Virus record (IMG/VR): IMGVR_UViG_3300030095_004072
Origin: an uncultured virus (IMG/VR IMGVR_UViG_3300030095_004072)
Taxonomy: Duplodnaviria; Heunggongvirae; Uroviricota; Caudoviricetes; Crassvirales
DNA: 64,000 nucleotides
Direction: 5' to 3' (one strand)
Positions 8,701 through 56,600 of the stretch are shown here, in pieces; the first letter of the stretch is position 1, and each line of letters starts with the position of its first letter. The translations under genes and the position numbers were made by a program. The notes under the pieces were generated by a model. It was not told the origin of the DNA and searched no databases. It worked only from the letters and a program-made list of their open reading frames with translations.

Positions 8701-9703
8701 TAATACATTTGTTGGAAAAGGAGCGGGTGCAGATATAACCACTGGTTTTGAATCTACATATATAGGGGAATCTGCTGGTGCAGGAACTAATAATACAAAC
8801 AGTAGAAGAAGTGTTGCTATTGGTGCTTTAGCCGCACAAAATGCTTATGGTGATGGTGATGTATTTATTGGAAGAAGTGCAGGTAATGGAAATACAAATG
8901 TAACAGCATCACCTGGGACAGCACAGTTAATGGAAAGAGTTGCGATAGGTTTAAACGCAATGTCAGGTTTAGTGTCAGGATCAACTGTTCTTCAAGGAAA
9001 TAATAGATATAGTGTGGCGATAGGAGCTTTTGCTGGAAATGCATCAGGCTCTACTGCATCTGGAAATTTAGTAGGATTCAGAACTCATATTGGATACAAA
9101 GCAGGAGCTAATGAACAAGGTCAAACTAATCCTGCTGATAACTCAGGGCAAATTGCAATAGGAACTTATGCAATGTGGAATCACACTTCTTTTAAAAGAG
9201 GTGCAATTGCGATTGGAGAAAAATCATATACTGACACTATAAACTCTGCTCCTTTAATCCAATCAAGCTGGGATGTATCTATAGGTGCATATTCATTTGG
9301 TGCAAATGGTGCTTTTTATCCTGAAATAACAGGAGAAGGAAATATAGCTATAGGATATTTAGCGGGAACAGACTCAACTCAAGCTGCTTCTATGGCAGGA
9401 GGAACAATAGCAATAGGTAAAAAAGCAAAGGCATTAAATATTGATACAATAGCAATAGGAACAGATGCTGCAGCAGGAGGTGCTAACATAGACAATGCTA
9501 TAGCAATTGGTAAATCTGCAATTGCGGCAGTTCAAAACTCTCTTGTAATTGGTAAAGGAGCTGAAGCATCAGGAGCGGGTATATATATAGGTAGTTCAAG
9601 CAACCCTATTGGAAATGTAGTAAACAGCAGTGCAGGAAGTTTACTAAATTATTTACCAATAACTATAGATGGAACTACATATAAAATACCTTTAGGTACA
9701 TAA
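2789..9703 (+). CDS. Giant modular tail fibre/adhesin (2304 aa)
   Basis: GTAGQVLxSxG and LQxVL repeats, about 8 GxGY..GD.ITI modules, C-terminal YadA-head-like xAIG repeats. Confidence 0.8.
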   Translation: MAKIFDVSAYPTITPAGSDLLIGTDVNDNNRTVTFKISDIVGGGGVAQDLTSVLSIGNSAANNLTLTGTGILTAVDVFPSVISAGTQGSHGTAGQVLTSTGTGIAWDTISGGSQTWDDVVGLGNTVSSQNLNLQDGSFSISQPGNVAGSLSGDTLTSLNWSGPINIGGSLNVNVGDFNLGNSTALKISQTTGISIDDGNTTSPAPPVYSKGSAGQALVSTGSGVKWSSGPTNTPHTLQQVLTQGNTATDVGVSFAGTSTSTFGDTVTFNFAGFVNITGDADSGVPTTKGILKINNGALDIAGDYAELRLKGSAGTSGQVLLSQGTTATPIWSNAQIAPTLQNVLDNSAGTAATGADAIVAVTGNATNGLSPTEGIIQAQNGAFNLWGDFSELQLKGSSGTAGQVLISQGVGATPVWGTNGGGGGSGTLTGIGSVNTNYVNTGIDNTVPANPVITSSLVTNNLVQGGPVSLINDTPSVIGTGYNTNGVFDTVAISPSTGVGLKVQITVDGLGGVDEIVAITNPGVGYEIGDTYTITSGNNDAVSSVIGIVSGTYYGQTGGFTVPAGNDWNLSFAATGSVSTTTTTNNGAGYPNGTSPTGVVTTVNPAGGSGATFDLVIDGAGAITSMTLNAAGSGYSVGDVISITGTTPAPTTARTLQVTSVNANTVALTNTDAVRTSSVNIDKGSGITLNLDNNNDLTLSAAAAGGTVTSVGLTSTNSTIGISGSPITSSGDIDIDLPTQTAYSAGTFSNASVTVDDYGIITNITAGTDSPYTLKANAAGTTTTVTNPAGGAGYTATGTVGTQITSGGGNNDLTVSYTNTAGAIDLNGITVVAAGTGYAVGDTFTVNGGTPGSLVTGTVTVITPTEADISLVNASAVRDTIKIVEGANISITDSGADSITIAATAAAGVTSFGLATNPASFTGTVDVTNNTITFVEKVNTIAGAPAENKSYISLDLSDPASTFNELTVGLSADTSALDTTTMLTHYLRADNTWGVPSVAGTVVDSLNTLTGALTLEGSGQSDIGTGGVATFSVNAGVPSPYQTMNNVGYPVTFSTTTNSASGSGCMITATNTAGVLSNLSVYSAGKGYQVNDTIDIEEALGYPALSTRVSLNVDTITAAGSIQSFTKPYTNPDLRTKVIQTGTPVPTNADPKLQIVFETPQKYDFTETTFTGSTGIDVDRVSDTEISITNTSPQITYGATAPINLDGLNNFELIYTGGDNVVTKANNLVQFSNAVNLTAKGYLQNTDKVLVNDRVQYALSISTPGQFPANQQYNNVATTVSPTGGTGLTISFLTDNNGQIVASNNSIEVTNDGSSYNASDVLQIAAASLTPAGTSDAFLNITSVTADKASYIEISQLADAVTSTSSWTLNGDTGTASITDNSIVSLLGGDGLNVTVAAGTTNTATITGAVFTLGDGATTDGVQGFVPGPLIADFGTNKFLKVNGTWALPVTSINTLTDQIELVGSGDITLGVSGVATVVTVLTNQGSGYALNGIYATTVSPTGGTGLTLKVTAVGSAGEAQQVSVYSAGQGYTANDVVTLIGQSSSGTANTTVFSITADNTIVVSTTESADVYDIKMSESSPGVATDPNLTLTRTNINGSAIVADNIQVLGETGVQVARNSDNAVTVSAMIDGSGDITIGESGVATLTSVIAGGTGYVLNKVYSTTSSISGSGATIKVTGVNATAVTTAVIYSKGRGYVVGETLTLTGLGSGNNATFDVNTITDENRIQVSNTQDLEDGVTSLNSLEGAVDIKPSGDISIGINGVETLNNATLSGGTNYVADRTYKTTGGGGTGLTILVSAITVGGVPSTVSVFAKGQGYTSGAVTLVGQGSDGGCTINIATLTAANDIQVSSSLTDLSQFTNSPGYTAISGGTQYFLAKFNQLGTTVENSNFIDRPTGLKELQGIGPNATTNEHYQLLISGTGYIGLTTTAASNTVRLGSGYLGTENDGTAVDSVYVGYNSGESITDGYSNTFVGKGAGADITTGFESTYIGESAGAGTNNTNSRRSVAIGALAAQNAYGDGDVFIGRSAGNGNTNVTASPGTAQLMERVAIGLNAMSGLVSGSTVLQGNNRYSVAIGAFAGNASGSTASGNLVGFRTHIGYKAGANEQGQTNPADNSGQIAIGTYAMWNHTSFKRGAIAIGEKSYTDTINSAPLIQSSWDVSIGAYSFGANGAFYPEITGEGNIAIGYLAGTDSTQAASMAGGTIAIGKKAKALNIDTIAIGTDAAAGGANIDNAIAIGKSAIAAVQNSLVIGKGAEASGAGIYIGSSSNPIGNVVNSSAGSLLNYLPITIDGTTYKIPLGT

Positions 9704-13147: not shown

Positions 13148-15586
13148 ATGAAAGGAATAAGTATAGATATAAAATCCGCTGCTTTTCCCGATCAGTTTGT
13201 TTCTGATTCTCAAAAGAAAACTAAAGAATTTGGATTACAAGTAGGTCAAGCTATTCAGTATGAATGGTTCAGGAAAGAAGGGGTAAACCAATGTAGGTTT
13301 TACAGTCAATGGTGGGAGTTTAATCGTTTAAGATTATATGCTCGTGGAGAACAATCCATAGCTAAATATAAAAATGAATTAGCTGTAGACGGTGATTTAT
13401 CTTATTTAAATTTAGACTGGACACCTGTTCCTGTTATTCCTAAGTTTGTTGATATTGTAGTAAATGGAATGTCGGACAGATTATTTACTGTTAAGGCATA
13501 CGCTCAAGATGCTATGTCATCAGAAAAAAGAGGTGAGTTTCAAAACATGGTAGAAAAAAGTGTTATTTCTAAAAACTTATTTCAACAAATAGAAAAAGAT
13601 TTTGATGTAAAATTGTTTAGCATGAATCCTGATGAATTACCTGAAAGTGATTTAGAAATGGAGCTTTATATGCAAATGAATTATAAACCTGCAATTGAAA
13701 TAGCAAATGAAGTTGCTATTAATACATTATTAGAAGAAAATCATTATTCACACACTCGTAAAAGATGTGATATGGACTTAATGACTTTAGGTTTATCTGT
13801 AGTAAAACATAACTTTCAATTAGGAGATGGAATAAGAGTTGAGTATGTTGATCCTGCTAATGTTGTTTATAGCTATACTGAAGATCCTTACTTTAAAGAT
13901 TGTTTTTATTGGGGAGAAATTAAAACAGTGCCTATTGGTGAGTTGTTAAAAATAAAACCTGATTTAACTAATGAAGACTTAGAAGAAATATCAAAATACA
14001 GTCAAGCATGGTATCAGTATTATAATGTTGCTGCTATGTATGAAAACTCTATGTTTTATAGAGATACAGTTACATTAATGTATTTTAATTACAAAAGCAC
14101 AAATACTTTTGTATATAAAAAGAAACAAACTGCCACAGGAAATTTTAAAGTAGTTCCTAAAACTGACGAATTTAATCCACCACAAGAAATGATGGATGAA
14201 GGTAAATTTGAAAAAGTAACAAAAAAAATAGATGTATGGTATGATGGTGTAATGGTAATGGGTACTAATATATTATTAAAGTGGGAACTTGCTAAAAATA
14301 TGGTTAGGCCACAGTCAGCAAGTCAATACGCTATGCCTAATTATGTAGCTACAGCACCAAGAATGTATAAAGGTAATATAGAATCCTTAGTAAGAAGAAT
14401 GATACCTTTTACTGATTTAATACAGATGACTCATTTAAAATTACAACAAGTAATTTCAAGAGTTGTACCTGATGGTGTATTTATAGATGCAGATGGATTA
14501 AACGAAGTTGATTTAGGAACAGGAAATGCATACAACCCTGAAGATGCTTTAAGATTATATTTTCAAACGGGTAGTGTTATTGGTAGAAGCTTTACTCAAG
14601 ATGGTGAGTTTAACAATGCAAAAGTACCTATTACACAACTTACTTCCTCAAGTGGTTCACAAAAAATGCAAATGTTAATTGGTAACTACAATCATTATAT
14701 GAATATGATTAGACAAGTAACGGGATTAAATGAAGCACGTGATGGAAGCACGCCTGATCCTAACTCTTTAGTGGGTGTTCAAAAATTAGCCGCACTTAAC
14801 TCTAATACTGCAACAAGACATATTTTAGAGGGTAGCTTGTATTTAACACAAACTTTAGCTGAAGCATTATCTATAAGAACAGCTGACGTTTTAGAGTATT
14901 CAGACTTTGCAGATGAATTTACTCAACAAATTGGAAAATATAATGTAGGGTTATTAGATGATATAAAAAACTTATATATATATGACTTTGGTATTTTTAT
15001 TGAAGTTTCTCCTGATGAAGAACAGCAAGCATTATTAGAGGCAAATATACAAACTGCTTTAAATAAACAAGATATTAATTTAGAAGACGCTATAGATATA
15101 AGAGAGTTAAAAAATATAAAAATGGCTAATCAGTTGTTAAAAGTTAAAAGAAAACAAAAGCAACTACAAGATTCACAACAAAAAGAAAAAGAACAACAGA
15201 TGCAAGCTCAGATTAATATGCAGTCACAACAAGCGGCTGCTCAAATAGCTATGCAAAAAATTCAAATGGAGACACAATCTAAAATGCAAATAAAACAAGC
15301 AGAGGTTGGTTTTGAAATAGAAAAACTTAAAAATGAGGCTGCGTTAAAAGAGTCTTTAATGCAAACAGAATTCCAAATGAATATGCAGTTAAAAGGTTTA
15401 GAGCAATCACAAATAGATATGCGTGAGCAGAATAGAGAAAAATCTAAAAACCAAAGAATTAGTCAGCAGTCATCAGAACAATCAAGATTAATAGACCAGC
15501 GTAAAAACAATTTACCTCCTATAAATTTTGAGTCTAATGAAGATAGTTTAGATGGTTTTGACTTAGCTGAGTTTGACCCACGATAG
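13148..15586 (+). CDS. Portal protein
   Basis: 812 aa between terL and scaffold; LNLDWTPVPVIPKFVDIVVNG motif; Gln-rich C-terminal coiled coil. Confidence 0.85.
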   Translation: MKGISIDIKSAAFPDQFVSDSQKKTKEFGLQVGQAIQYEWFRKEGVNQCRFYSQWWEFNRLRLYARGEQSIAKYKNELAVDGDLSYLNLDWTPVPVIPKFVDIVVNGMSDRLFTVKAYAQDAMSSEKRGEFQNMVEKSVISKNLFQQIEKDFDVKLFSMNPDELPESDLEMELYMQMNYKPAIEIANEVAINTLLEENHYSHTRKRCDMDLMTLGLSVVKHNFQLGDGIRVEYVDPANVVYSYTEDPYFKDCFYWGEIKTVPIGELLKIKPDLTNEDLEEISKYSQAWYQYYNVAAMYENSMFYRDTVTLMYFNYKSTNTFVYKKKQTATGNFKVVPKTDEFNPPQEMMDEGKFEKVTKKIDVWYDGVMVMGTNILLKWELAKNMVRPQSASQYAMPNYVATAPRMYKGNIESLVRRMIPFTDLIQMTHLKLQQVISRVVPDGVFIDADGLNEVDLGTGNAYNPEDALRLYFQTGSVIGRSFTQDGEFNNAKVPITQLTSSSGSQKMQMLIGNYNHYMNMIRQVTGLNEARDGSTPDPNSLVGVQKLAALNSNTATRHILEGSLYLTQTLAEALSIRTADVLEYSDFADEFTQQIGKYNVGLLDDIKNLYIYDFGIFIEVSPDEEQQALLEANIQTALNKQDINLEDAIDIRELKNIKMANQLLKVKRKQKQLQDSQQKEKEQQMQAQINMQSQQAAAQIAMQKIQMETQSKMQIKQAEVGFEIEKLKNEAALKESLMQTEFQMNMQLKGLEQSQIDMREQNREKSKNQRISQQSSEQSRLIDQRKNNLPPINFESNEDSLDGFDLAEFDPR

Positions 15587-19508: not shown

Positions 19509-20465
19509 ATGAGAGCAAAATATTTAGAAATCCCTATTAACACAGTTGTAGCTTCGGGTACAAATGAGTTGGTAGTGGGAACAACCGCATCAGCGGGTAT
19601 AGCCACAGGAACTAATGCAGCTGCTGTCACTGATAAACTTAATGATGCTACTGCAACTTTTGTTGCTGATGGTGTTGTTGTAGGTGACATTGCATACAAT
19701 GTTACTGCGGGTACTCAAGGTGCTATAACAGCTGTAAATGCTAACGGAACAGAATTAAGTTTTGCTACTAACTTGTTTAGTGCAGGTGGAGAAACTTATG
19801 CAATTCGTAAGGAAAAGCAGTTAAATGCTGTAGCAACATTTACAACTCGTAAAGTTAGAGTTGGAGATATTGTAAAGAATACAACTGTAAATACACAAAC
19901 TACTGTAGCTGCTTTAATTAACGAAACATCATTAACATTAACGGCTGATATATTTAACAGTTCAACTTTGTTTGATGATAATTTTACAATTGAAGCTCCT
20001 GCAACAGAAGTTTACGACAATGGAAAGTCTTTTTTAACGTCTCTTACTGTAGGTGATGTGTATGAAAATACAACTCAAAACTTCAGTGAATTAGTTTCTG
20101 TTATTATAGACGATTTTAGATTTAGATGTAGCTCTACAGTTGGTGCAATTGGAGACGCTTTTAATGTTTTTGATTCAACAGTAGCTTCTACTTACTTAAT
20201 CCAAATGGACCAGATAGTTTTAGCACAAAGACTTACTGCAGAACAAACTACGATTCAGTTAAACACAGTTGCTAATTCTACAATAACAATAGACCATTCA
20301 GATCAAGGAACTGGACGTGCTGTTGCTATTGCAATACAAGATGCTATGAAGAGAGGATATATAGGTGTGAATATGCCTGAGCCTCCTGGACCTTCTACTG
20401 CAAGAGTACAAATGCCTATATTTGAAAACTCTATAATTACAGTTGAAAGTGTAGCTGCCGCATAA
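19509..20465 (+). CDS. Virion/head decoration-like protein with internal VGD..N.T repeats
   Basis: Three repeats: VVVGDIAYNVT, VRVGDIVKNTT, LTVGDVYENTT. Confidence 0.55.
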   Translation: MRAKYLEIPINTVVASGTNELVVGTTASAGIATGTNAAAVTDKLNDATATFVADGVVVGDIAYNVTAGTQGAITAVNANGTELSFATNLFSAGGETYAIRKEKQLNAVATFTTRKVRVGDIVKNTTVNTQTTVAALINETSLTLTADIFNSSTLFDDNFTIEAPATEVYDNGKSFLTSLTVGDVYENTTQNFSELVSVIIDDFRFRCSSTVGAIGDAFNVFDSTVASTYLIQMDQIVLAQRLTAEQTTIQLNTVANSTITIDHSDQGTGRAVAIAIQDAMKRGYIGVNMPEPPGPSTARVQMPIFENSIITVESVAAA

Positions 20466-20484: not shown

Positions 20485-20520
20485 AAGAGAGGTTACAAAA
20501 AAAGTAACCTCTTTTTTTTT
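20485..20520 (+). terminator. Intrinsic terminator
   Basis: AGAGGTTAC-A7-GTAACCTCT followed by a T run. Confidence 0.85.
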
Positions 20521-20553: not shown

Positions 20554-21510
20554 ATGGCAATGATTGATGAGGTTAGGAGTACAGTATTAGGTATTATTAA
20601 TAAAAATAATTACGGATACTTATCTCCTCAAGATTATAATTTATATGCAACGCAAGCTCAGTTGGATATATATGAAGATTATTTTTATCAATACAATCAG
20701 TGGATTAATAAAGAAAACCAAAGACAATCTGGGACAGGCTATGCAGATATAGTAAAAGGATTAGTTGAGGTGATAGATTCTTTTTCAGAAGAAGTTTTTT
20801 TGACACAAACAAATGCAAATATTTTTAGCCTACCGTCTGACTATTATTTAGTAAATAAAATATACTACTACCCTGAGTTATTACTTAGTGGTACTTTTAG
20901 TGCTTCAGTAGGAAATGTAATGGATGCTTTAGTACCTGCAACACCATTTACTGCACCAGGAGGGTTTAACGTACCTCAGTTTCCACCAACTAATAGTCTT
21001 ATAGTAAACACTTCTACTTTAAAACAAACTTTTATAACAGGTGTAGCCACAACATCTCAAATAAATGTTGCTGAAGCCTTATTTGCAGTTGCAGGAGATT
21101 ATTCTATATACAGTAATACAAATATAACAGAGGTAGAAAGAGTAAGTCAAAATAAAATATTTTATCTTACAAGCTCTACAATGTCAGCTCCTACTAATCA
21201 ATTTCCTGCTTACGTGTTAAGTGGTAATGATATTTCGGTTTACCCTACATCTATTAAAACAGCGGGGCAAATAAAAGCACAATATGTAAGGTATCCAAAA
21301 ACACCTCAATGGACATATACTTTATTAAGTAATGGAACACCTCTTTATGATCCTACGGTAGCTGGTTATCAAGACTTTGAATTACCGTTATCTGATATGC
21401 CTGGTTTAGTTGCTAAAATATGTCAGTATATAGGAATAGAAATAAGAGAATCAGATGTATATCAATTTGGTACTCAAGAAATAGTACAAGACAACCAAAT
21501 ACAAGTATAA
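20554..21510 (+). CDS. Head-tail adaptor/ring-type structural protein
   Basis: INKNNYGYLSPQDYNLYA N-terminus and YVRYPKTPQW motif; first gene of tail block. Confidence 0.6.
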   Translation: MAMIDEVRSTVLGIINKNNYGYLSPQDYNLYATQAQLDIYEDYFYQYNQWINKENQRQSGTGYADIVKGLVEVIDSFSEEVFLTQTNANIFSLPSDYYLVNKIYYYPELLLSGTFSASVGNVMDALVPATPFTAPGGFNVPQFPPTNSLIVNTSTLKQTFITGVATTSQINVAEALFAVAGDYSIYSNTNITEVERVSQNKIFYLTSSTMSAPTNQFPAYVLSGNDISVYPTSIKTAGQIKAQYVRYPKTPQWTYTLLSNGTPLYDPTVAGYQDFELPLSDMPGLVAKICQYIGIEIRESDVYQFGTQEIVQDNQIQV

Positions 21511-27504: not shown

Positions 27505-28275
27505 ATGTCAAAATCAGAAACATTATCATATAGTGAAGGCGTAAAGGGATGGCCGTCTTTTTATTCTTTTTTACCTGAATACATGATAGGTATGAATTCT
27601 TATTTTTATTCTTTTAAGCAAGGTAGGCTTTATAGGCATAATACTAATGAATTAAGAAATACTTATTACGGAATATTTACCCCGTCTGAAATAACGGGAG
27701 TTTTTAACGCAGAACCAACTACTATAAAATTATTTAAAACTATATCTTTAGAGAGTAGTGCTGCATGGGAATGCACTAATTTAGCTACGGACTTAGGGAT
27801 AGGTATAATAGAATCTTCTTTCTTTGAGCAAAAAGAAGGTGAATGGTTTAGTTATATTAGAACTCCATTAAACACAGAAAATTTTAAACTAAGATCAACA
27901 CATGGAATAGGAACTATTGATGGAGCTAACTTTACCCTATCTACAACTCCTGGTGAGTGGGAATTATTATTTCCTTCAAGTCTTAAAATAGACAATATGA
28001 TTAGTGGTGGAGATTCAGTATATGTAAAAAGCACACCTAATGATGTAAAAATAGGAGAGGTAGTAAAAATAGATAAAGCAACTAATACTTTGACAATAAC
28101 AAATCCAGGGGCTGTTACTCTTGTAGGTAATAATTTTTGGTTTTATTATAAAAACCCACAAGCAGAGTCTAATGGAGTTAGAGGTTACTTTATGGAATTT
28201 ACGTTGCAAAACTCATCTAATAGTCCTGTAGAAATGTTTTCTTTAGGAAGTAGCGTGATGAAAAGTTATCCATAG
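27505..28275 (+). CDS. Tail protein resembling a separated C-terminal part of the nozzle protein
   Basis: TLSYSE..KGWPSFYSF.PE, KLFKTISLES, FEQKEGEWF, GVRGYFM motifs. Confidence 0.55.
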   Translation: MSKSETLSYSEGVKGWPSFYSFLPEYMIGMNSYFYSFKQGRLYRHNTNELRNTYYGIFTPSEITGVFNAEPTTIKLFKTISLESSAAWECTNLATDLGIGIIESSFFEQKEGEWFSYIRTPLNTENFKLRSTHGIGTIDGANFTLSTTPGEWELLFPSSLKIDNMISGGDSVYVKSTPNDVKIGEVVKIDKATNTLTITNPGAVTLVGNNFWFYYKNPQAESNGVRGYFMEFTLQNSSNSPVEMFSLGSSVMKSYP

Positions 28276-31425: not shown

Positions 31426-34400
31426 ATGAATAAAGAAGCTTTAGAAACTTTATATGGGTTAGCTCAACAAGATGGTTATAAAAAATCTTTAGAAGAGTTT
31501 ACTATTTTAATGCAACAAAATCCTGAAGCAGTAAATCAGATGTATGGCCTTGCGAGAAAAAATGGATATCAAAAGTCTGAAGACGATTTTAATATATTAG
31601 TTGGATTTCAGCAACCTGTAAAAAAAAAAGAACCGACTCAAGAAAGCCCAGAAGTGGTTTCAGATGGTTCTGGGGACACGGAAATTACGGAGGAAGTTAT
31701 CACGGAACAAGAGGGAGTTGGTACTTCGGATTATTTACAAAGTCAGGATCTTGATTTTGAAATGGCTGAGGTTAAGCCCTACAGCCCTGTTTATGCCGAT
31801 GCTCAAATGCAAGATTTATCAGTTGGTGAGAAAGACACTGCAATTGAAAGAGTATTTGGTAAAAATGAATTTACAGATTTCTTTGGTGATATGTGGCGTG
31901 CAGGTGTTCAAGGACAAGTGCAAGGAGGCACTGTTGATGAGTCATTAGAAATATTAGGTAAATCCCGTATTGGAGCTGAAGTAACCTCAGAAGACATACA
32001 AGACTTTTTAGTAGCACAAAGAAAATTACAAAGCGTAGGTGTTTCAGATGAGATGAAAGACTTTAATCGTATATACCAAGCTAACGGTGGTGGTGCTTGG
32101 GGTTGGGTAAAAGGAGTTTGGAATAACCCATCAACTATCCCGCAATTATTTGTTTCTTCCATGAGTGCTATGGTAAACCCTACTGTATTAGCAGGTGCGG
32201 CTGCAGGTGCAGGAGCGGGTACAGCTGTAGGTCCAATAGGTACAGCTGCAGGTTTTTTTGCAGGTGCGGGAATAACATTAGAAACAGGATTAACTTTTGC
32301 TGAGTTACTACAAAAAGAAGTTGTTGACAGAGGTTTAAAGTTAGATGAAGCAGGGGTACGAAAAGTCTTAGAAGATAAAGACGCAATGAGTAGTATAAGA
32401 AACAAATCAGCAGGAAGAGGGCTTGTTATTGGTGCTATTGACGGTATGGCTTCTAAGATAGGTATAAAAGTAGGAGCAAGAACATTAGGTGGAAAAGCAT
32501 ATGGTTTAGGTAAGAAAGTAAAAGCGACTGGTCAAGTAGCGGCAATAGAGGCAGCAGGAGGTTCTCTTGGTGAAATAGGAGGGCGATTAGCAGCTGATCA
32601 AGAAATGGACGCAGCTGAAGTTTTATTTGAAGGGTTTGCAGGAACAGCAACTTTACCTGCTACACTTGGAATAGCAGCATATAAATCACCTAAATACTAT
32701 ATAAATAAAGGAAATTTTGATGAAAGTCAAAAAGATTTAACAAGAGTTGATCCTGAAATAATGGAAGATTTAATTTATAACTCTACAGACGAAGAATTTG
32801 CCGCAGCTGAAATAACTATAAAAAATAACCCTGAATTAGAAAAGGTAGCAGCTGACAGAAAGAAAAAACTTCATAGCAAATCCACAGCACAAAAAGAAAT
32901 TTTAGATGCAAACCCAAAGTTAAGCCAAGAAAAATTAGATAAATTAGTTCCGTTACAAGAAGAATTAAATAGTTTAGAAGGAAATAAATCACAACCTGCA
33001 AAGAAAAGAAGGGCTGAGATTATAGAACAAATGAATGCTGTTGAAGAAGCAAAAGAAACTAAAGTTGAAGAAACAGAAATAACTGAAGAAGAAATAGATA
33101 AAAAGTTAAAAGAATTAAAACCCAATACTGATACAGCTACTGCAGAAGAAAGAGCTTATGCAAGAAATTTAGTAGCAAAAGATAAAAGAGATGCTGCTGC
33201 AAAAGTAGCTGAAACAGAAACAGAAACAGAAACAGAAATTACAGCTACTCCTGAAACTAAAGAGGAAGCACAAGACTTAGCTGAAGCTGTAGCATTAGAT
33301 ACAGAAGAGACAGTAACAAATGAACAAGGAGAAGTAGTAGGAGAAAAAGTAGATGAAGGTGAGGCAATGATTAGATACGGTGAAGAGTCAGAGCAAGATT
33401 TGTTTGCACCATTAGATTTTGAAAACACTAACAACACCACTTTTGGTCCTGCACCTGCAAACTTAGCCTTTTTTGGTCCTGCTAATAGAGCGGGAACGTA
33501 TAAGGCTGATGGTACTCGTAATAAATTTACTGCAACAATTACACCAAAGAATCCGTATAAAGTAGAAAAATCTGATGTATGGACAGTAGAAAAACTCCAA
33601 CCTATTATAGAAGCAGGACATGATGCTATTGTGGTTACAAATCCTGTAGCACCTGAAACTATTGTATTAGATAAAAGTATTATTAAATTAACAGCACCAA
33701 CTGAATTAAAAACTAAAACCGATGCCACTACAAAGCAAAGCACAACTAAGGTGGATGGCAAAAAACAAGCCAAGCCTATTTCAAAAGTTTCTAAACGAAA
33801 CACTAAACGTAAAAAATCTACCAGAAAGAAAGTCAAAGACAAAGCGGAGCAACAAAAGCAAGACACGCAAAAGAAAACGAAAATAAAAGAACTTAAAGCT
33901 ATAGCTCCTAATGCTTATGTAAACGAGTCAGACAAAGCAAAAAGAATTAACTCAGAAAAATTTATAAAACCTGCTAAAAGAGCTTTAGCTGCATTAAAAA
34001 AATTACTTCCTGATGTGATGGTTGTAATACATGAGAATGAGGTAGACTATATGAATGCTATTGGTAATCCAAAAGGCAGGTCTGCAGGTGTTTTTAGAGG
34101 TGATAATGTAATTCATATTAATGCTGAACTTGCAACTAATCGTGTCTTAAGTCATGAAATATTTCACGCTATACTTAGAAACAAATTAGGGTCAGAAAGT
34201 AAAATAGCAGTTTTAACAGACAGAATGATGAAGGCTCTTGCAAAGGCTGATTTAGATCCTGAAATAAAAAAGAAAATTGACGAATATATTGCGTTATATA
34301 AAGAAAGAAATAAAGATGATGCGTCAAGATTAGCATATGCAAATGAAGAATATATGGCTGAAATCTTTAGTTATCTGTCAAATAACTATACATCTTTAAA

Positions 34401-37400
34401 AGCACCTCAACAATCTATTATAAAAAGGTTTATAAGCAAACTAAGTAATTTATTAGGACTTACAGCAGAAGATGTTATTGGAACTGATAAGGCTTTGATT
34501 GATTTATTAAACGTAGTAGCAGGTAAGGTACAAACAGGTGAAACAATTACTAAGTCAGATGTAAAACAACTTGACTTGTTTGCAGGTGGTAAAGAGGTGA
34601 AAAACCCATCAACTGCTTTAAAAACAATGGTTGTAGGTGGTTTTGAAGTAAGTTACACTCAGCAAGATAGTATTGCGGAAATGATTAAAAAAGGTTTAGT
34701 TACTGAGCCTAAAGATGTAAGTTTCTTAGAAGGTAACGAAACTGTTATAACAGCTCCAGACGATATGTTAGCAGGAGAGATTAAATATAATGGTAAAGTT
34801 ATTTTTGAAGGGGAGGGTGGTGTGTTTTTTGTAACTAAGTTTGGTGATGTATGGGCTTCAGGTAATAAAGGTACTGCAAATAATATAGCTAAAAATTTAA
34901 ATAAACAATTAGAAACTAATGGAGGTAAAGCATACTTAACATTAACAAAAGGATCAGACGCTAAATTAGTTAGTAGTGCTTCTGGTGTAAATTCTACTTT
35001 AGCAATATTAAACACGATGTTAGATAATAAATTAATTACCCCTTCTAATTTTAGAAGTGCTGTTTCTGCAGCTGTAAAAAAAGCAGGAGGAACAATTAAT
35101 TTAAGACAAAGTGCAAAAGATTTAAAAACAGATATACAAAAATATTTTACTAATCCAAAAACTTCAACGTTTGAGAAAAGAGGAGATGTGGTTAGAGATA
35201 TAGTAGGAGAAATAGCTAAAAATCTTCCTAAAGAAGATAGAAGTGCTATTATTAATTTTTTAGATGGTAATCCCAACAAATCTTTAGCAAAGAAAACTTC
35301 AGCAACTGCTAACGGGTTAGTTGATTTGATTGCTCGTATAGCAGCTGAACAGCTTACGAAAGGTTTAAATACAGGAGATGTTTATGCAATTATAGAAATT
35401 AACAGTCCTGTTGAGGTTAAAGAAGATTCGCACCCAAGCTATCCATTTCACATATCAATAAAAGATGGTGGTAAACCTATATTACACTTACCACAAAACA
35501 GACAATCAGGAAGTGAGGTGTTAATACAAAAATCAGGGGTAGAATACAAGGTTCGTAATGTATCTATAGTAGAAGGAAGCTATAAATCCTCAGACAAGAC
35601 ATCAGTGTATACAGGAGAAACACAAGAAAAAAGAATATTTAACAAACAAGACACTATAAATGATGTGGTTGCTAAAGCAAGAGGATTAGACTATAGTGAA
35701 GCAGCTATATTTGAATACTTACGCAACAACAGAAAACTATCTACAGATGAAGCTCGTGCTGCATTAGAACAAAAAGAAGGAGCTTTTACTGATATACCAA
35801 TGGAGTTTCAATTAGTAAACGGTGGTATAAGTGAGGGTCAAACTTTATTTAATCAAATATCATATGAGTTAAATAAATTTTTAGTAGAAAAACCTGATGC
35901 TACTCGTATACAAACTGAAAAGAAAGCTTTTGAAATATTAAGAAACAATGACATATTTAAAGCACAAGATAAAAGTATACAAAACAACATTGAAATATCT
36001 TATAGAGGAGTATTAGGTAAAGTACAAAGTGTAGAAATAAGTAAACGTATAAATCGTTTAAAAAGAGACTTGTTTATAAAAAAACAAGGACAAAGAGATT
36101 TAAGAAAAATACAACTTCAGTTAAAGCAATTAATTAGAAAGTACGTGCCAAAAGAAGCTACGTTTACTAAGGCAGAATTAGATAGAATGCTAAACAAAAT
36201 TATAACAGCAGGACCTGATTCTATTTTGTCTGTAGGTGAAAAAATATTTAATGCAGTTGAAAGAAAAAGAAAACAAGTTAAGATAAAAAAGATTAAAGAG
36301 ATAAAGGCTATGGTTAACAAATTAGCCAAGTCTGCTTCTACTAAATCATCAAGACCAATAGCGTCTAATATAGAAGGTGGAGGTGTTGCATTTTTTAAAG
36401 AAGTAAGATCAGTATTACAAGCTGCCTTGACACCAGACAATGTTTCCAGAGGAGAAAAGTTATTATCAATTTCTGCATTAATTGAGTCTAATCAACAAGA
36501 AACTCAAATAACATTAGAAAAACAAAAAAGAGGTGAGCCTCTTACTTTAAGAGAACAAACTTTGTTAGCTCGTGTTTTAGCTTTTGATACATTTAATAAT
36601 ATATATAACTTAGACTTAGAGGCCGTTACTGATATATTAGAGCAAATGAAAGATGCTAAAAAAGAATCTATTGCTATGTTAAATATGGCAAGATTAGAAC
36701 GAGCTGAAGTTAATAATGAAATTTTTGAATCAGCAACTAATCAAATAAGACAAAACTATCCTGAAATGTTTAATGATGATGGTAAGGGAGAGTTAAAAAA
36801 TAAAAGAGACTTTGATGCTTTAGATAAAGAAGGTTTTTTAGGAGACACAAGAAGTAAAATCAGTAACTTTTTTAAACAATTTAAATTTACATCTACAGTA
36901 GGTATACGTTCTTATTTAAGAAATAGACTTTCTCATTTAGGTACTTTAATGAATATTTTAGATAATGTAAATTTAAAAAATACATTTTTCTACGATACTG
37001 TTTATCAAGGATTAAATAGAATGCATACTAAAGCCTTGAGAGGATATTATAATGCACAGACAATGATTAATTCTATTGCAGCAAGTATTGATGGTATAGA
37101 AAGTTATCAAGACTTAAAACAAAAATTACCATTTGAGCTTGTAAAAATAGACTTTGGAGATACAAAATATATTAATAAAGCCACAGGGAAAGCACAAGAA
37201 GAGTTTAGTATTACACAGTTAATGAGAATATATGCTTTGAGTAAAAACGAAACTCAAAGAATAAAATTAGAAAACTCAGGGTTTGGTCAATATCAAATAT
37301 CACAAATAGAGGGAGCAATAGGGACAGATGCTGTAGAGTTTGTAGATAAAATTGTAAACTGGTTAAGCACAGATTACTTTAATAGCATAAACAATATATA

Positions 37401-39069
37401 TAAACAAGCTAACTATACTGATTTAGGTTTTGTAGAAAACTATTTTCCTACAAAAAGTATATCAGCTTCAAATGTAAGTCAAGACTTAATAAAGGGTGGT
37501 AATTTTGCAAAAGTATTTAGTGCTGAGACTGCTCCGTCATTAAAAGAAAGAACAGACGAGTTTGGAGAGACAGACGTAGGTCCTGATTTTGTAGAAACTT
37601 TAGAAAACCATGTTGCACAAATGGAAAGATATAAAGCTTACGCTTTAGGAGTAAAAAATTTACAAGCAGTCTTTAATGTTCCTGCTGTTAATACTTTACT
37701 AACACGTTTAGGTATTTCTGATAGAGTAAACGAATCAGTAAATTTAGCTATAAACCCATCTATGGGAGTGAAGGATCAAGGTGTTATGGCGAAACTGCAA
37801 CGTAAATTTACAGGATTTGCTTTATCATTTAAAGCAATTCAATTATTAAAACAATCAACATCTTTTGTCAATGCCTTTGAAGAATATAAAGGTAAGGGTG
37901 GTGCAGGTGGTTTTATGATTGGTATGGCTAAAGTTGTTGCAAGACTACCTTACTACATGAAGTTAGCACAAGAAATATCTCCAGACTTTAGAGATCGTTT
38001 GCGTAAAGGATTAGAAGGAGACTTATACAGATTAGAAACAGGAAGTAGGACTACAGCTCCAATTGAAAGAAGAATTAAAGACTTAAGAAAAGCTTTAAGT
38101 GAAAAGGATTATGAAGCTTTTAAAAATAGAATTATTACACTGTTTCAGAAAGGTGCAGCTATGCCTACGGTAATGGGAGATATTATGGGTGTTATGGGAT
38201 ATATGGTAAATTACGAAGCTAATATTGCAAATGGAATGTCAAAAGCAAAAGCAGCTGAAGCTTTTAATAATTATAATGCAACTCAGCAGTCAAGAAGAGA
38301 AACAGATAAAATTCCTTTACAGCAAAGTCAAAATGAAATGACAAGAGCTTTTACTATGTTTGGTAGTACATTGTTTTTACAAATAAATAAAGTTATGAGT
38401 TCTACAAGTAATATTATGGGAGCTATATTTCGTAAAAAAGCTCCAAGAAGACAAGATATAAGAGCTTTTGTTTTAAACTTTGCAGGTGCTAACGTAATGT
38501 TTGCTTTAGCAGCAAATATGTTTAAATTCATGGGTAATGATAAAGACGAAGAAGAAGCTATGGATAGATTAAAAGAAGCTATGTATGGTTTAAACTTACT
38601 TTATCAAATACCTTTTTTTGGTGCAGCAGTACAAGAAACAAGAAACAGGGCTTTAGGAAAGTCTTCAGGATATGCTGATGATGTTGTAAATCCTATAAAA
38701 TCTGTTATGAGAAAAGTAAATAAAGGATTGAAAGATGGAAGATTAGATAAAAGTCTAAGGCCATTTGTAGAAATTTTATTAGGAGCACAGGTTGACCCTT
38801 TTGTAGGAATGTATAATTATTTTGCAGGACAAGGCAAAGACAAAAACGAAGCATTTTATGATATATTTGGTATAAGCCCATCTTACCGTCCAGGGACAGG
38901 TACTGCCTACAGTCCTGAAGATTTAAAGTATATAAAACAAACTAATCCTGATTTGTATAACCAAATACAAGAAAATAAAAAATTAAAAAATAGTAATAAG
39001 AAAATGAGTAAGTCAGAAATGAAACGTACTAACCCTGAAATGTATTATCAAATTTATGGAGAACAATAA
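31426..39069 (+). CDS. Giant internal virion/polyvalent protein (2547 aa) with zincin HExxH and ART-like segment
   Basis: Gly/Ala hydrophobic stretches; SHEIFHA...NEEYMAE; KNPY...GHDAIV...ETIVLD; helical C-terminus. Confidence 0.7.
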   Translation: MNKEALETLYGLAQQDGYKKSLEEFTILMQQNPEAVNQMYGLARKNGYQKSEDDFNILVGFQQPVKKKEPTQESPEVVSDGSGDTEITEEVITEQEGVGTSDYLQSQDLDFEMAEVKPYSPVYADAQMQDLSVGEKDTAIERVFGKNEFTDFFGDMWRAGVQGQVQGGTVDESLEILGKSRIGAEVTSEDIQDFLVAQRKLQSVGVSDEMKDFNRIYQANGGGAWGWVKGVWNNPSTIPQLFVSSMSAMVNPTVLAGAAAGAGAGTAVGPIGTAAGFFAGAGITLETGLTFAELLQKEVVDRGLKLDEAGVRKVLEDKDAMSSIRNKSAGRGLVIGAIDGMASKIGIKVGARTLGGKAYGLGKKVKATGQVAAIEAAGGSLGEIGGRLAADQEMDAAEVLFEGFAGTATLPATLGIAAYKSPKYYINKGNFDESQKDLTRVDPEIMEDLIYNSTDEEFAAAEITIKNNPELEKVAADRKKKLHSKSTAQKEILDANPKLSQEKLDKLVPLQEELNSLEGNKSQPAKKRRAEIIEQMNAVEEAKETKVEETEITEEEIDKKLKELKPNTDTATAEERAYARNLVAKDKRDAAAKVAETETETETEITATPETKEEAQDLAEAVALDTEETVTNEQGEVVGEKVDEGEAMIRYGEESEQDLFAPLDFENTNNTTFGPAPANLAFFGPANRAGTYKADGTRNKFTATITPKNPYKVEKSDVWTVEKLQPIIEAGHDAIVVTNPVAPETIVLDKSIIKLTAPTELKTKTDATTKQSTTKVDGKKQAKPISKVSKRNTKRKKSTRKKVKDKAEQQKQDTQKKTKIKELKAIAPNAYVNESDKAKRINSEKFIKPAKRALAALKKLLPDVMVVIHENEVDYMNAIGNPKGRSAGVFRGDNVIHINAELATNRVLSHEIFHAILRNKLGSESKIAVLTDRMMKALAKADLDPEIKKKIDEYIALYKERNKDDASRLAYANEEYMAEIFSYLSNNYTSLKAPQQSIIKRFISKLSNLLGLTAEDVIGTDKALIDLLNVVAGKVQTGETITKSDVKQLDLFAGGKEVKNPSTALKTMVVGGFEVSYTQQDSIAEMIKKGLVTEPKDVSFLEGNETVITAPDDMLAGEIKYNGKVIFEGEGGVFFVTKFGDVWASGNKGTANNIAKNLNKQLETNGGKAYLTLTKGSDAKLVSSASGVNSTLAILNTMLDNKLITPSNFRSAVSAAVKKAGGTINLRQSAKDLKTDIQKYFTNPKTSTFEKRGDVVRDIVGEIAKNLPKEDRSAIINFLDGNPNKSLAKKTSATANGLVDLIARIAAEQLTKGLNTGDVYAIIEINSPVEVKEDSHPSYPFHISIKDGGKPILHLPQNRQSGSEVLIQKSGVEYKVRNVSIVEGSYKSSDKTSVYTGETQEKRIFNKQDTINDVVAKARGLDYSEAAIFEYLRNNRKLSTDEARAALEQKEGAFTDIPMEFQLVNGGISEGQTLFNQISYELNKFLVEKPDATRIQTEKKAFEILRNNDIFKAQDKSIQNNIEISYRGVLGKVQSVEISKRINRLKRDLFIKKQGQRDLRKIQLQLKQLIRKYVPKEATFTKAELDRMLNKIITAGPDSILSVGEKIFNAVERKRKQVKIKKIKEIKAMVNKLAKSASTKSSRPIASNIEGGGVAFFKEVRSVLQAALTPDNVSRGEKLLSISALIESNQQETQITLEKQKRGEPLTLREQTLLARVLAFDTFNNIYNLDLEAVTDILEQMKDAKKESIAMLNMARLERAEVNNEIFESATNQIRQNYPEMFNDDGKGELKNKRDFDALDKEGFLGDTRSKISNFFKQFKFTSTVGIRSYLRNRLSHLGTLMNILDNVNLKNTFFYDTVYQGLNRMHTKALRGYYNAQTMINSIAASIDGIESYQDLKQKLPFELVKIDFGDTKYINKATGKAQEEFSITQLMRIYALSKNETQRIKLENSGFGQYQISQIEGAIGTDAVEFVDKIVNWLSTDYFNSINNIYKQANYTDLGFVENYFPTKSISASNVSQDLIKGGNFAKVFSAETAPSLKERTDEFGETDVGPDFVETLENHVAQMERYKAYALGVKNLQAVFNVPAVNTLLTRLGISDRVNESVNLAINPSMGVKDQGVMAKLQRKFTGFALSFKAIQLLKQSTSFVNAFEEYKGKGGAGGFMIGMAKVVARLPYYMKLAQEISPDFRDRLRKGLEGDLYRLETGSRTTAPIERRIKDLRKALSEKDYEAFKNRIITLFQKGAAMPTVMGDIMGVMGYMVNYEANIANGMSKAKAAEAFNNYNATQQSRRETDKIPLQQSQNEMTRAFTMFGSTLFLQINKVMSSTSNIMGAIFRKKAPRRQDIRAFVLNFAGANVMFALAANMFKFMGNDKDEEEAMDRLKEAMYGLNLLYQIPFFGAAVQETRNRALGKSSGYADDVVNPIKSVMRKVNKGLKDGRLDKSLRPFVEILLGAQVDPFVGMYNYFAGQGKDKNEAFYDIFGISPSYRPGTGTAYSPEDLKYIKQTNPDLYNQIQENKKLKNSNKKMSKSEMKRTNPEMYYQIYGEQ
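31620..31754 (+). other. Candidate -1 frameshift site (A10) and 41-codon -1 frame extension
   Basis: GTA AAA AAA AAA GAA, then a -1 frame encoding a Gly/aromatic peptide to TGA 31752-31754; downstream CCCAGAA/TTCTGGG stem. Confidence 0.45.
33722..33886 (+). CDS. Overprinted 54-aa basic ORF (MPLQSKAQLRWMAKNKP...) in the +1 frame of the giant gene
   Basis: A-rich leader AATTAAAAACTAAAACCG then ATG; host frame has unusually many G/C-ending codons here. Confidence 0.55.
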   Translation: MPLQSKAQLRWMAKNKPSLFQKFLNETLNVKNLPERKSKTKRSNKSKTRKRKRK

Positions 39070-55010: not shown

Positions 55011-56600
55011 ATGGAACAAGGTTATATACCAAAGACGCTTAGCTTTGATGATGAAGCTCGTCAAAAATTAATTACAGGAATCACTAAAATTTCAAAAGCA
55101 GTTAAAAGTACATTAGGTCCTTTGGGCAAGACTGTTTTGTTAGAATCACCAAATCATACTTCAGGCATGACAGTTACTAAGGACGGTGTAACAGTTGCTG
55201 AGTCTGTGTTTTTAAATGATCCTATAGAGAACTTAGCAGTTAGGATGATGAAGGAAGCATCAAGTCGTACAGCTCAGTCTGCGGGTGATGGTACAACAAC
55301 TGCTATTGTTTTAACTGAGGCCTTAGTTAAAGCTGGTCAGCAGACATTAACATCAGAGTCAAACACAACAGAAGTAATTAGGTATATAAATGAACACACA
55401 GCTGTTATTATAGATGGTTTGCAAACTGCTTCTAAAAAAGTTACAGAAGAAAGGTTATTAGATGTTGCTTCTATTTCAGCTAATAATGATAAGACAATAG
55501 GTAAGATAATTAAAGATGCGTATACTCAAGTTGGGATAAACGGTATGGTAACTGTAGAGAAGTCTATGACAGCACAAACATATGCTGAGGTTACTAACGG
55601 TATTAAGATTGCCAGGGGTTGGTCATCAAATCTATTTATTAATAGTCAAAAGAAAGATGAGTGTATACTTGAAGATGTTAAGATTTTAGTTTGCGATGCA
55701 GAAATTAATAGCATACTTCAAATAGAGAACGTGTTAAAGCCTGTAATAAACAACGGAGACAAACTTTTAATCATTGCCCCTTGCTCAACTAATGTTATAA
55801 ATACTTTAGCGGCTAACGTAGTTCGTAACGGTTTAAAGTTTTGTAATATAGCTCCTCCACAGTTTGGATACAAGCAACATGAGCTTATGCAAGATATCGC
55901 TATGTCAGTTGGTGCTAAATACTATTCAGAGAAGACTGGTGATGATTTAAGTTTAATTATGCCTAATGACTTAGGTAGTGCAGATAAAGTTATTGTAGGT
56001 GAGCATTCAACTGTAATTTTTAAAAAGGATAATACAACACCAGAGTTAAACGATAGAATTGCTGAGTTAAAAATACAACAGAAAAACTCAAAAGATAAAT
56101 CAAATAATGAATTTATAAAAGAACGTATAGCAAGTTTAGCGGGTGCTATAGGCTGTATTTATGTTGGAGGTAACTCTGAGATAGAACAAAAAGAAAAGTA
56201 TGACAGAGTAGATGATTCAGTATGTGCAGTACGATCAGCACTTGAAGAAGGTATATTAGCAGGTGGAGGTATAGCTCTGTTTAGAGAATCAATGATGTTA
56301 AGAGCTGAAACTAAAAATCAAGATGAGAAAGATGCAGTCTTAATCTTAGAGGCTGCACTACGTTCACCTCTTATTCAAATATTAGACAATGCAGGAAAGA
56401 ATAGAGAGAAAGTTGTAGAACAATTATATGACAAAAAATATAATTATGGATACGATGTTAAGAATAACAAGTATGGTGATATGTATAAGTTGGGTGTTAT
56501 TGATCCTCTTAAGGTAACAAAGAACGCACTGACTAATGCAGTAAGTGTAGCAACAACTATACTTAGCACAAACGCTATAGTAACAAACATGAGGGCATGA
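55011..56600 (+). CDS. groEL: Phage-encoded group I chaperonin GroEL
   Basis: TLGPLG, VTKDGVTVA, AGDGTTTA, GVIDPLKVT; no C-terminal GGM tail. Confidence 0.97.
   Translation: MEQGYIPKTLSFDDEARQKLITGITKISKAVKSTLGPLGKTVLLESPNHTSGMTVTKDGVTVAESVFLNDPIENLAVRMMKEASSRTAQSAGDGTTTAIVLTEALVKAGQQTLTSESNTTEVIRYINEHTAVIIDGLQTASKKVTEERLLDVASISANNDKTIGKIIKDAYTQVGINGMVTVEKSMTAQTYAEVTNGIKIARGWSSNLFINSQKKDECILEDVKILVCDAEINSILQIENVLKPVINNGDKLLIIAPCSTNVINTLAANVVRNGLKFCNIAPPQFGYKQHELMQDIAMSVGAKYYSEKTGDDLSLIMPNDLGSADKVIVGEHSTVIFKKDNTTPELNDRIAELKIQQKNSKDKSNNEFIKERIASLAGAIGCIYVGGNSEIEQKEKYDRVDDSVCAVRSALEEGILAGGGIALFRESMMLRAETKNQDEKDAVLILEAALRSPLIQILDNAGKNREKVVEQLYDKKYNYGYDVKNNKYGDMYKLGVIDPLKVTKNALTNAVSVATTILSTNAIVTNMRA

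Follow-up and report, generated by a model that had tools for sequence, protein, structure and literature searches.

A conserved A10 run as a candidate recoding site in a giant virion-protein gene of uncultured marine phages

The giant virion-protein gene of an uncultured virus (IMG/VR IMGVR_UViG_3300030095_004072; Crassvirales) carries, shortly after its start, a run of ten adenines (A10) that, on the comparison of homologous sequences, is very probably a real recoding site, be it for RNA polymerase or for the ribosome. The gene lies in a 64,000-nucleotide (nt) stretch of DNA, analysed as a whole and here called the window, for which a first-pass annotation had suggested that a -1 frameshift at the run yields a second, short isoform. 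Its description of the locus is accurate throughout: the open reading frame (ORF) codes for 2547 amino acids (aa) and has two N-terminal repeat copies (codons 4-21 and 34-51), the run is read GTA AAA AAA AAA GAA (V65, K66-68, E69), and the -1 frame entered at its last base continues for the 41 residues given before a TGA at 31752-31754, which makes an isoform of 109 aa (65 + 3 + 41). The -1 tail has ten aromatic residues (F, W or Y), nine glycines, one acidic residue and an isoelectric point (pI) of 11.0; the 0-frame linker is acidic, and the peptide read from the tail's own bases has a pI of 4.05. Most expression would read through the run to the 2547-aa virion protein, and a set fraction would shift to the -1 frame and end 41 codons later in a 109-aa protein, composed of the shared two-repeat helical N-terminus, KKK and a basic, aromatic, predicted three-stranded beta mini-domain. 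The isoforms thus have the helical module in common and differ after it, the giant protein's linker being acidic and the short form's tail basic. We infer the shift step and its efficiency.

The A10 run in homologues and the overlapping -1 frame

The A10 run is the longest homopolymer of the window, followed by a T9 and an A8; the T9 (20512-20520) is intergenic, between ORFs 19509-20465 and 20554-21510. By our own rough estimate, base composition (36% A; G+C 31.9% over the 64 kb) by itself predicts about one A10 per 64 kb. The run alone therefore proves nothing, and it is the comparative data that argue against chance. Three collection scans gave 174 homologous loci, two of the scans supplying the best 80 of 105 and the best 80 of 241 relatives. 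The loci were anchored on the conserved domain by tblastn and dereplicated together with the window to 139 distinct N-terminal regions. A run of at least nine A stands at the same place, 57-78 codons past the start, in 113 of the 139 (A10 in 92, A9 in nine, A11 in eight, A12 in one and A13 in three; none in 26), and the giant ORF stays in frame in 111 of these 113 distinct loci. The surroundings of the run vary. The N-terminal modules are several unrelated-looking repeat families, every one ending in the A run; the codon before it is GTA, TTA, TCA, ATA, CCA or another, with A as third base in the A10 forms; and the linker between run and conserved domain is 14 to 192 codons long. Six lineages with the run in another codon phase keep its length (A9-A13), among them the A10 forms CAA AAA AAA AAG, GAA AAA AAA AAC and AAA AAA AAA ATC. 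A sequencing-run contig of yet another lineage (X2, record 4) matches the window only at 31615-31632, CCTGT-A10-GAA, with a different N-terminal module before it.

Run-bearing lineages never have AAG inside the run. The same genes have 78 Lys-Lys-Lys triplets elsewhere, none of them written with AAA throughout even though AAA makes up 74% of Lys codons, and the downstream giant ORF, 365,373 nt in all, contains a single other A/T run of at least nine; A/T runs of this length are avoided in the giant ORFs except at the slip site. The first-pass annotation had named runs broken by AAG, or early -1 stops, in homologues as the observations that would count against it. Both were looked for in this set, and the candidate frameshift survived.

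The annotation had also asked whether the pattern of the -1 frame is conserved. The frame is open for 16-44 codons after the run, and the 83 distinct tails (median 33 residues) align to a single pattern. It begins Arg-rich, often with a first aromatic strand, then passes through R-Y-G-[I/F]-x-[Y/I], a 0-12-residue loop and G-x-W-[F/L]-[I/F]-G-x-[F/Y], and closes with a short basic stretch. For codon-level tests we used 41 tail representatives below 60% identity. Two columns of the tail are Gly in 38 of 41 and 38 of 40 of them, and the entropy of these Gly codons is 0.28-0.49 bits at positions 1-2 against 1.57-1.61 at the wobble base. This base is position 2 of the 0-frame codon, and the 0-frame residue at the second Gly (Gly-2) is D in 13, E in nine, G in eight, A in four and V in four. 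Because the Gly codons are fixed at positions 1-2 while the wobble base is free and the 0-frame residue changes, selection acts on the -1 frame, and the 0 frame appears to tolerate the outcome. The 0-frame codon preceding Gly-2 is TCG in 27 of 40 and TTG in 11 of 40; elsewhere TCG accounts for 4.9% of Ser codons. When the 0 frame is recoded synonymously, a median of 4 open -1 codons is left versus the 33 observed (combined p 2e-25), and 26 of the 41 lineages taken singly have a longer open frame than their recoded versions at p<0.05. Synonymous 0-frame differences are also fewer in the overlap than outside it, with 1/22 versus 70/161 between the window and L019 (p 1.5e-4) and 5/28 versus 65/149 between L097 and L098 (p 0.008). 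This suppression holds for most close pairs, not all. Across the 83 lineages, the 0-frame linker consists of D and E to 22%. Searched against the window, the tail profile has its sole match with an expectation value (E) below 1 at the -1 tail (E 3.8e-10).

Fold prediction was applied to two short forms, L116, which is a natural contiguous 95-aa form, and P0002, a 109-aa gene call from a lineage 97% identical to the window's; the alignment rows were unaltered translations. AlphaFold2 predicts four helices and a three-stranded antiparallel sheet for both. Mean predicted local distance difference test scores are 83.7 and 81.9, with 73-78 and about 85 in the sheet region and 82-92 in the helical part, and the strands of the 109-aa form cover residues 78-84, 87-93 and 98-104. 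Foldseek returned no match in the PDB at E <= 0.001; a wide VIA-align fold search reached a best Z of 4.1, for the helical part only, and no PDB fold stood out. A predicted complex of the first 330 residues of the giant protein with the short isoform scored 0.00, which is evidence neither way. Among 1.84 billion representative proteins the tail profile has 21 matches at E <= 0.001, of which 20 are fusions of the same kind (76-112 aa) with various N-terminal families and the remaining one is a spurious-looking Cys-rich repeat protein. Judged from sequence, the tail appears to be a new domain of about 30 residues. In its alternation of basic and aromatic strands it is reminiscent of cationic beta-hairpin peptides and of small sheets that bind nucleic acids.

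The 26 homologues that lack the A run extend this picture. In 16 of them the -1 motif lies at the right place (tail profile, E 4e-6 to 0.02), together with other slip sites that are all in phase: T TTT TTT TTA (three loci, one lineage), G GGA AAG (four loci), G GGA AAA, A AAC CCT and A AAG alone (five loci), with several candidates at one locus. Nine run-less loci are missing the -1 ORF altogether, and one more locus is truncated. In a FastTree of the conserved domain (124 rows; unrooted, so that it does not show the direction of change), the heptamer, tetramer and no-ORF loci all fall in one clade of 22 rows (support 99), and the T9 lineage is nested among A-run lineages. The heptamer clade has a Cys-rich stretch (C-x-C, then a further C) in place of the first strand of the tail, before the YG...FxG core; the loci with this stretch are L086, L146, L152, L055, L075, L158, L153, L058, L088 and L080. 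A freshwater podovirus record, MW202828.1, has Q-KKK with an A11 run; its tail has diverged, with Cys in place of both core Gly (L175:1688-1775).

Route of the shift and competing explanations

For the window we favour slippage by RNA polymerase, a route the annotation had allowed for, over ribosomal -1 slippage, and the sequence comparison makes it somewhat probable. RNA polymerase would add one extra A to some transcripts at the A10, and translation would then be normal. We favour this route because the run is at least 9 A long and most often 10 where 7 A would serve ribosomes, because its length and not its phase is conserved, because AAG never occurs inside it although the heptamer clade uses AAG, and because no downstream structure is enriched. 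Passages of the review by Atkins et al. (2016; PMC5009743) report that slippage of the bacterial RNA polymerase is efficient at runs of 9 A or T; the window has 10 A, the 113 run-bearing homologues have 9-13, one lineage has T9, the length is kept across phases and such runs are avoided elsewhere.

On the ribosomal route, the unaltered A10 messenger RNA would undergo tandem -1 slippage of two tRNA-Lys on A AAA AAA, or sliding on poly-A; we regard this as possible, and less probable than polymerase slippage. Motifs of the X XXY YYZ type are present in phase, as A AAA AAA in the window and as G GGA AAG, G GGA AAA and A AAC CCT in relatives, and the sister clade of 22 rows uses these last three and A AAG. 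According to the same passages (PMC5009743), G_GGA_AAG is highly shift-prone in Escherichia coli and serves as the g-t shift site of a haloarchaeal virus, the tetramer A_AAG is shift-prone as well, and ribosomes have been described to slide on A runs. Against this route stand the length of the run, which never falls below 9 and is exactly 10 in 92 of 113 although 7 A suffice for ribosomes, its retention despite phase change, and the absence from it of AAG, the better A-site codon in E. coli. E. coli coding sequences contain a single AAA_AAA_AAA (passages of PMC5009743).

Nor is a downstream stimulatory structure enriched. Over the 70 nt after the run, the folding z against shuffles is 0.05 in the window and -0.09 on average over the 41 lineages, of which four are below -1.64. 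Upstream, rRNA-pairing elements were checked by eye only. Bacterial frameshift cases do not all need a stimulator. The CCCAGAA/TTCTGGG stem to which the annotation had drawn attention is present, 17 nt from the run; as a stimulator it is not supported, since the 70-nt segment folds no better than its shuffles.

Several observations weigh against a conserved -1 product made by polymerase slippage, some bearing on the route and others on the coding frame. In most lineages the run is in phase 0 (AAA AAA AAA G) and its end coincides with a codon boundary. Because it always holds an in-phase A AAA AAA, ribosomal slippage gives the same protein, and for relatives with G GGA AAG the ribosome is the only route. 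Synonymous suppression is weak between the window and L018 (p 0.09) and between L098 and L020 (p 0.54). The tail profile was built from run-bearing loci, so that its matches to those loci are circular; independent matches are confined to the 26 run-less loci and MW202828.1. The +1 frame too is unusually open, with a median of 36 codons versus 10 simulated (p 3e-14), and 28 of 41 lineages have no +1 stop anywhere in the overlap, versus 1.5 expected; in the window it spans 31630-31948 (105 codons), and across lineages it often closes a few codons from the -1 stop. A third isoform from this open frame is not claimed, as the +1 peptides have no motif of their own, only a shadow of the -1 motif. 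The openness of the +1 frame may simply follow from double coding, or may be relevant if A9 transcripts arise. With nine homologues devoid of the -1 ORF, the short form is dispensable in some lineages. Near-identical sequence occurs in sequencing runs labelled marine, macroalgae, sponge and riverine, from 12 studies; these matches are assembled contigs, one of which spans the run with A10 and no gap and is uninformative on slippage, and the RNA-library contigs among four sequencing runs are short and lie downstream of the run. Lastly, public assemblies with an extra A mean that length variation at the DNA level, or sequencing error, exists at the run.

These assemblies lead to an explanation other than recoding, in which the run is a hypermutable DNA tract, genomes are a mix of A10 and A11, and the short protein comes from A11 genomes with a split gene. 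L116 (A11) and L129 (A9) are indeed out-of-frame twins of A10 loci. Public gene calls include 42 short proteins, 33 of them exact fusions of N-terminus, KKK and -1 tail and only two with a +1 tail; one 109-aa form, from the 97% lineage, is on 4 contigs, and 20 more cluster representatives are fusions of the same kind. Each of these is a gene call made on an assembly that has one A too many, not a protein detection, and such assemblies may be errors, real A11 variants or complementary DNA, which gene calls alone cannot tell apart. Homopolymer errors in assembly can yield the same short calls, and P0006 and P0025 show other artefacts (P0025 ends in residues that we take to be adapter-derived). 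A hypermutable tract is nonetheless improbable. The giant ORF is in frame at nearly all run-bearing loci, an A11 genome would strip the N-terminal module from the giant protein, and relatives with G GGA AAG or A AAG keep the same -1 domain although these sites are not hypermutable, from which it follows that the family needs both products from one genome. As an observation on the calls themselves, dozens of the short public proteins P0002-P0060 are the exact predicted trans-frame product, and they span at least eight N-terminal module families.

Two further explanations dispense with a slip. The run could be no more than KKK in an AT-rich genome, with the open -1 frame a by-product of the acidic linker. 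Composition does predict about as many A10 runs as are seen, by the estimate given above, and off-frames of acidic sequence are basic by construction, the +1 frame included (median pI 11.2). The comparative results as a whole contradict this absence of function, foremost the -1 Gly codons conserved while the 0-frame residue moves among D, E, G, A and V, and the lack of all-AAA KKK triplets elsewhere in the same genes; we consider it very improbable. Alternatively, the -1 ORF could be a small overlapping gene in its own right, started at a codon of its own; six of the 83 sequences do have an ATG upstream of the run in the open -1 frame. The other 77 have no ATG there, and the tails are free of internal ATGs. 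The frame opens 21 nt (median) ahead of the run, in five sequences a -1 stop overlaps the run, and the slip site is always at the 5' end of the -1 ORF. Because of the missing ATGs and the stops at the run, entry into the frame must be by a shift. Independent initiation is rejected on the same grounds, and a separate gene is extremely improbable. Explanations other than polymerase slippage, ribosomal slippage and DNA-level polymorphism are, even together, quite improbable.

Genome context

The window looks like most of a podophage genome of about 65 kb, with the slip site in the gene that closes the structural module (Table 1) and with primase-helicase, ERF and SNF2 genes in the other arm.

Table 1 Coordinates of the slip site, the two reading frames and neighbouring genes in the window
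Feature	Position	Strand	Description or basis
Giant virion-protein gene	31426-39069	+	2547 aa, ATG at 31426; closes structural module
N-terminal module, both isoforms	31426..31620 (codons 1-65)	+	Two ~30-aa helix-loop-helix repeats
A10 slip site, GTA AAA AAA AAA G	31620..31629	+	Candidate; sequence and homologue comparison
-1 frame tail	31629..31754	+	41 codons + TGA; basic, aromatic mini-domain
Predicted tail strands	~31656-31676, 31683-31703, 31716-31736	+	AlphaFold2 model of the 109-aa form of the 97% relative
0-frame linker over the -1 tail	31630..31800	+	Acidic, weakly conserved part of the giant protein
7-bp inverted repeat CCCAGAA/TTCTGGG	31647-53 and 31668-74	+	Sequence; no support as stimulator
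P22-like portal gene	13148-15583		
ORF upstream of the giant gene	27505-28275		Match to crAss muzzle C-terminal domain PF25729

The 2547-aa protein matches no Pfam family at E <= 0.01 and, by sequence, nothing in the PDB; phrog_32588 matches its aa 130-609. Its conserved domain includes a Gly/Ala-rich hydrophobic stretch (aa ~232-306, ~32119-32340) that by sequence looks membrane-spanning. An HExxH motif (HEIFH) is at aa 910-914 (34153-34167), within a segment, aa 863-1366, that is 28% identical to a 'structural protein' of the Flavobacterium phages vB_FspP_elemo. ESM Atlas neighbours of aa 120-620 (31783-33285) are clusters of viral hypothetical proteins, in one of which 57% of the members carry PF18834 (LPD22). 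Against the phage collection, blastn found only a spurious 82-nt match, and tblastn with the N-terminal 650 aa found one record. Elsewhere in the window, a GroEL-like chaperonin gene at 55011-56597 (+) matches Pfam Cpn60_TCP1 over almost its whole length (E 1.7e-59), and a second giant ORF at 2789-9700 (+; 2304 aa) has no Pfam match and none to the tail profile.

Known systems and the possible role of the short isoform

Conserved frameshifts known in tailed phages are, to our knowledge, few, mainly that of the tail chaperone G/GT and those of some capsid genes. Lambda G/GT resembles the present case in being a structural-module gene with a conserved -1 shift whose products share the N-terminal part and differ in their C-termini, and G GGA AAG, used by some homologues here, is lambda's own heptamer. 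The two differ in that the lambda shift extends the protein and its gene precedes the tape-measure gene of long-tailed phages, whereas here the shift would truncate 2547 aa to 109 aa in a podophage-like genome without a tape measure. No tape-measure context was found in the window, and the product is shortened, which sets the gene apart from the G/GT family; the proteins are without sequence or fold relation. For lambda, passages of PMC5009743 state that the ratio of the two products is fixed and needed for assembly.

The dnaX gene, with its tau and gamma products, is likewise one gene that gives a full-length and a shorter protein with the same N-terminus from an A-rich site after which the shifted frame soon ends. 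Its homologues use either a homopolymer and polymerase, as at the 9-base A/T run of Thermus thermophilus, or a heptamer and the ribosome, as at A_AAA_AAG in E. coli (passages of PMC5009743), and this matches the split here between A-run lineages and the 22-row heptamer clade. The differences are that the shifted frame here encodes a conserved, predicted folded domain of 16-44 residues, not just a quick stop, and that dnaX is a replicase subunit and not a phage virion protein. Shigella type III secretion genes, Citrobacter tssM and insertion sequence elements also have an in-gene A/T run of at least 9 from which two frames are read, according to passages of PMC5009743 and the abstract of PMC4256274. 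In several of these bacterial cases slippage repairs a frame disrupted at the DNA level, whereas here the gene itself is in frame and a slip would give a minor, shorter form; none of the listed cases is in a phage virion protein gene.

In its size, its place after the tail genes, its HExxH motif and its LPD22 neighbour cluster, the giant protein resembles the polyvalent phage proteins. The lack of a Pfam family at E 0.01 sets it apart from them, and this is a lead and not a membership: the protein may belong with polyvalent virion proteins. The term 'frameshift' does not occur in the polyvalent-protein paper. We found no description of the slip site in the literature searched, a coverage outside of which lie subscription journals. 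The mechanism is of a known kind; what appears new is the gene family, together with its tail domain and the exchange of slip-site types within one phage protein family.

As to function, we can only guess that the short isoform is an accessory. The N-terminal module common to both isoforms would bring it into the giant protein's assembly at a fixed ratio, and its basic beta tail would bind another target, for example DNA or the envelope of the host. A fixed-ratio partner is suggested by analogy with lambda G/GT and dnaX; such a partner would dock at the same place as the giant protein and contribute another C-terminal activity. Taken as a whole, a tentative picture is that of a giant-protein family of marine phages with a hidden second gene, in which about 120 bases would encode both an acidic disordered linker in the 0 frame and a folded basic aromatic beta mini-domain in the -1 frame, the latter reached through a slip site swapped between homopolymers (A10, T9) and heptamers, with the short isoform as a stoichiometric partner of the giant protein via the shared module. 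If this is true, the short isoform could limit the number of giant-protein copies packed, or act as a membrane- or DNA-binding pilot in ejection.

With this finding a further recoding event would be known, one widespread among uncultured marine phages: there are more than 100 distinct lineages in two collections, and sequencing runs from 12 studies contain matching sequence. It would also mean that standard gene calling misses a conserved small protein, as in the sole annotated GenBank relative, MW202828.1, which lists a single coding sequence. Like dnaX, the family would offer a natural series of homologues that make the same trans-frame product through a homopolymer or a heptamer, in which the choice between polymerase and ribosome is directly testable.

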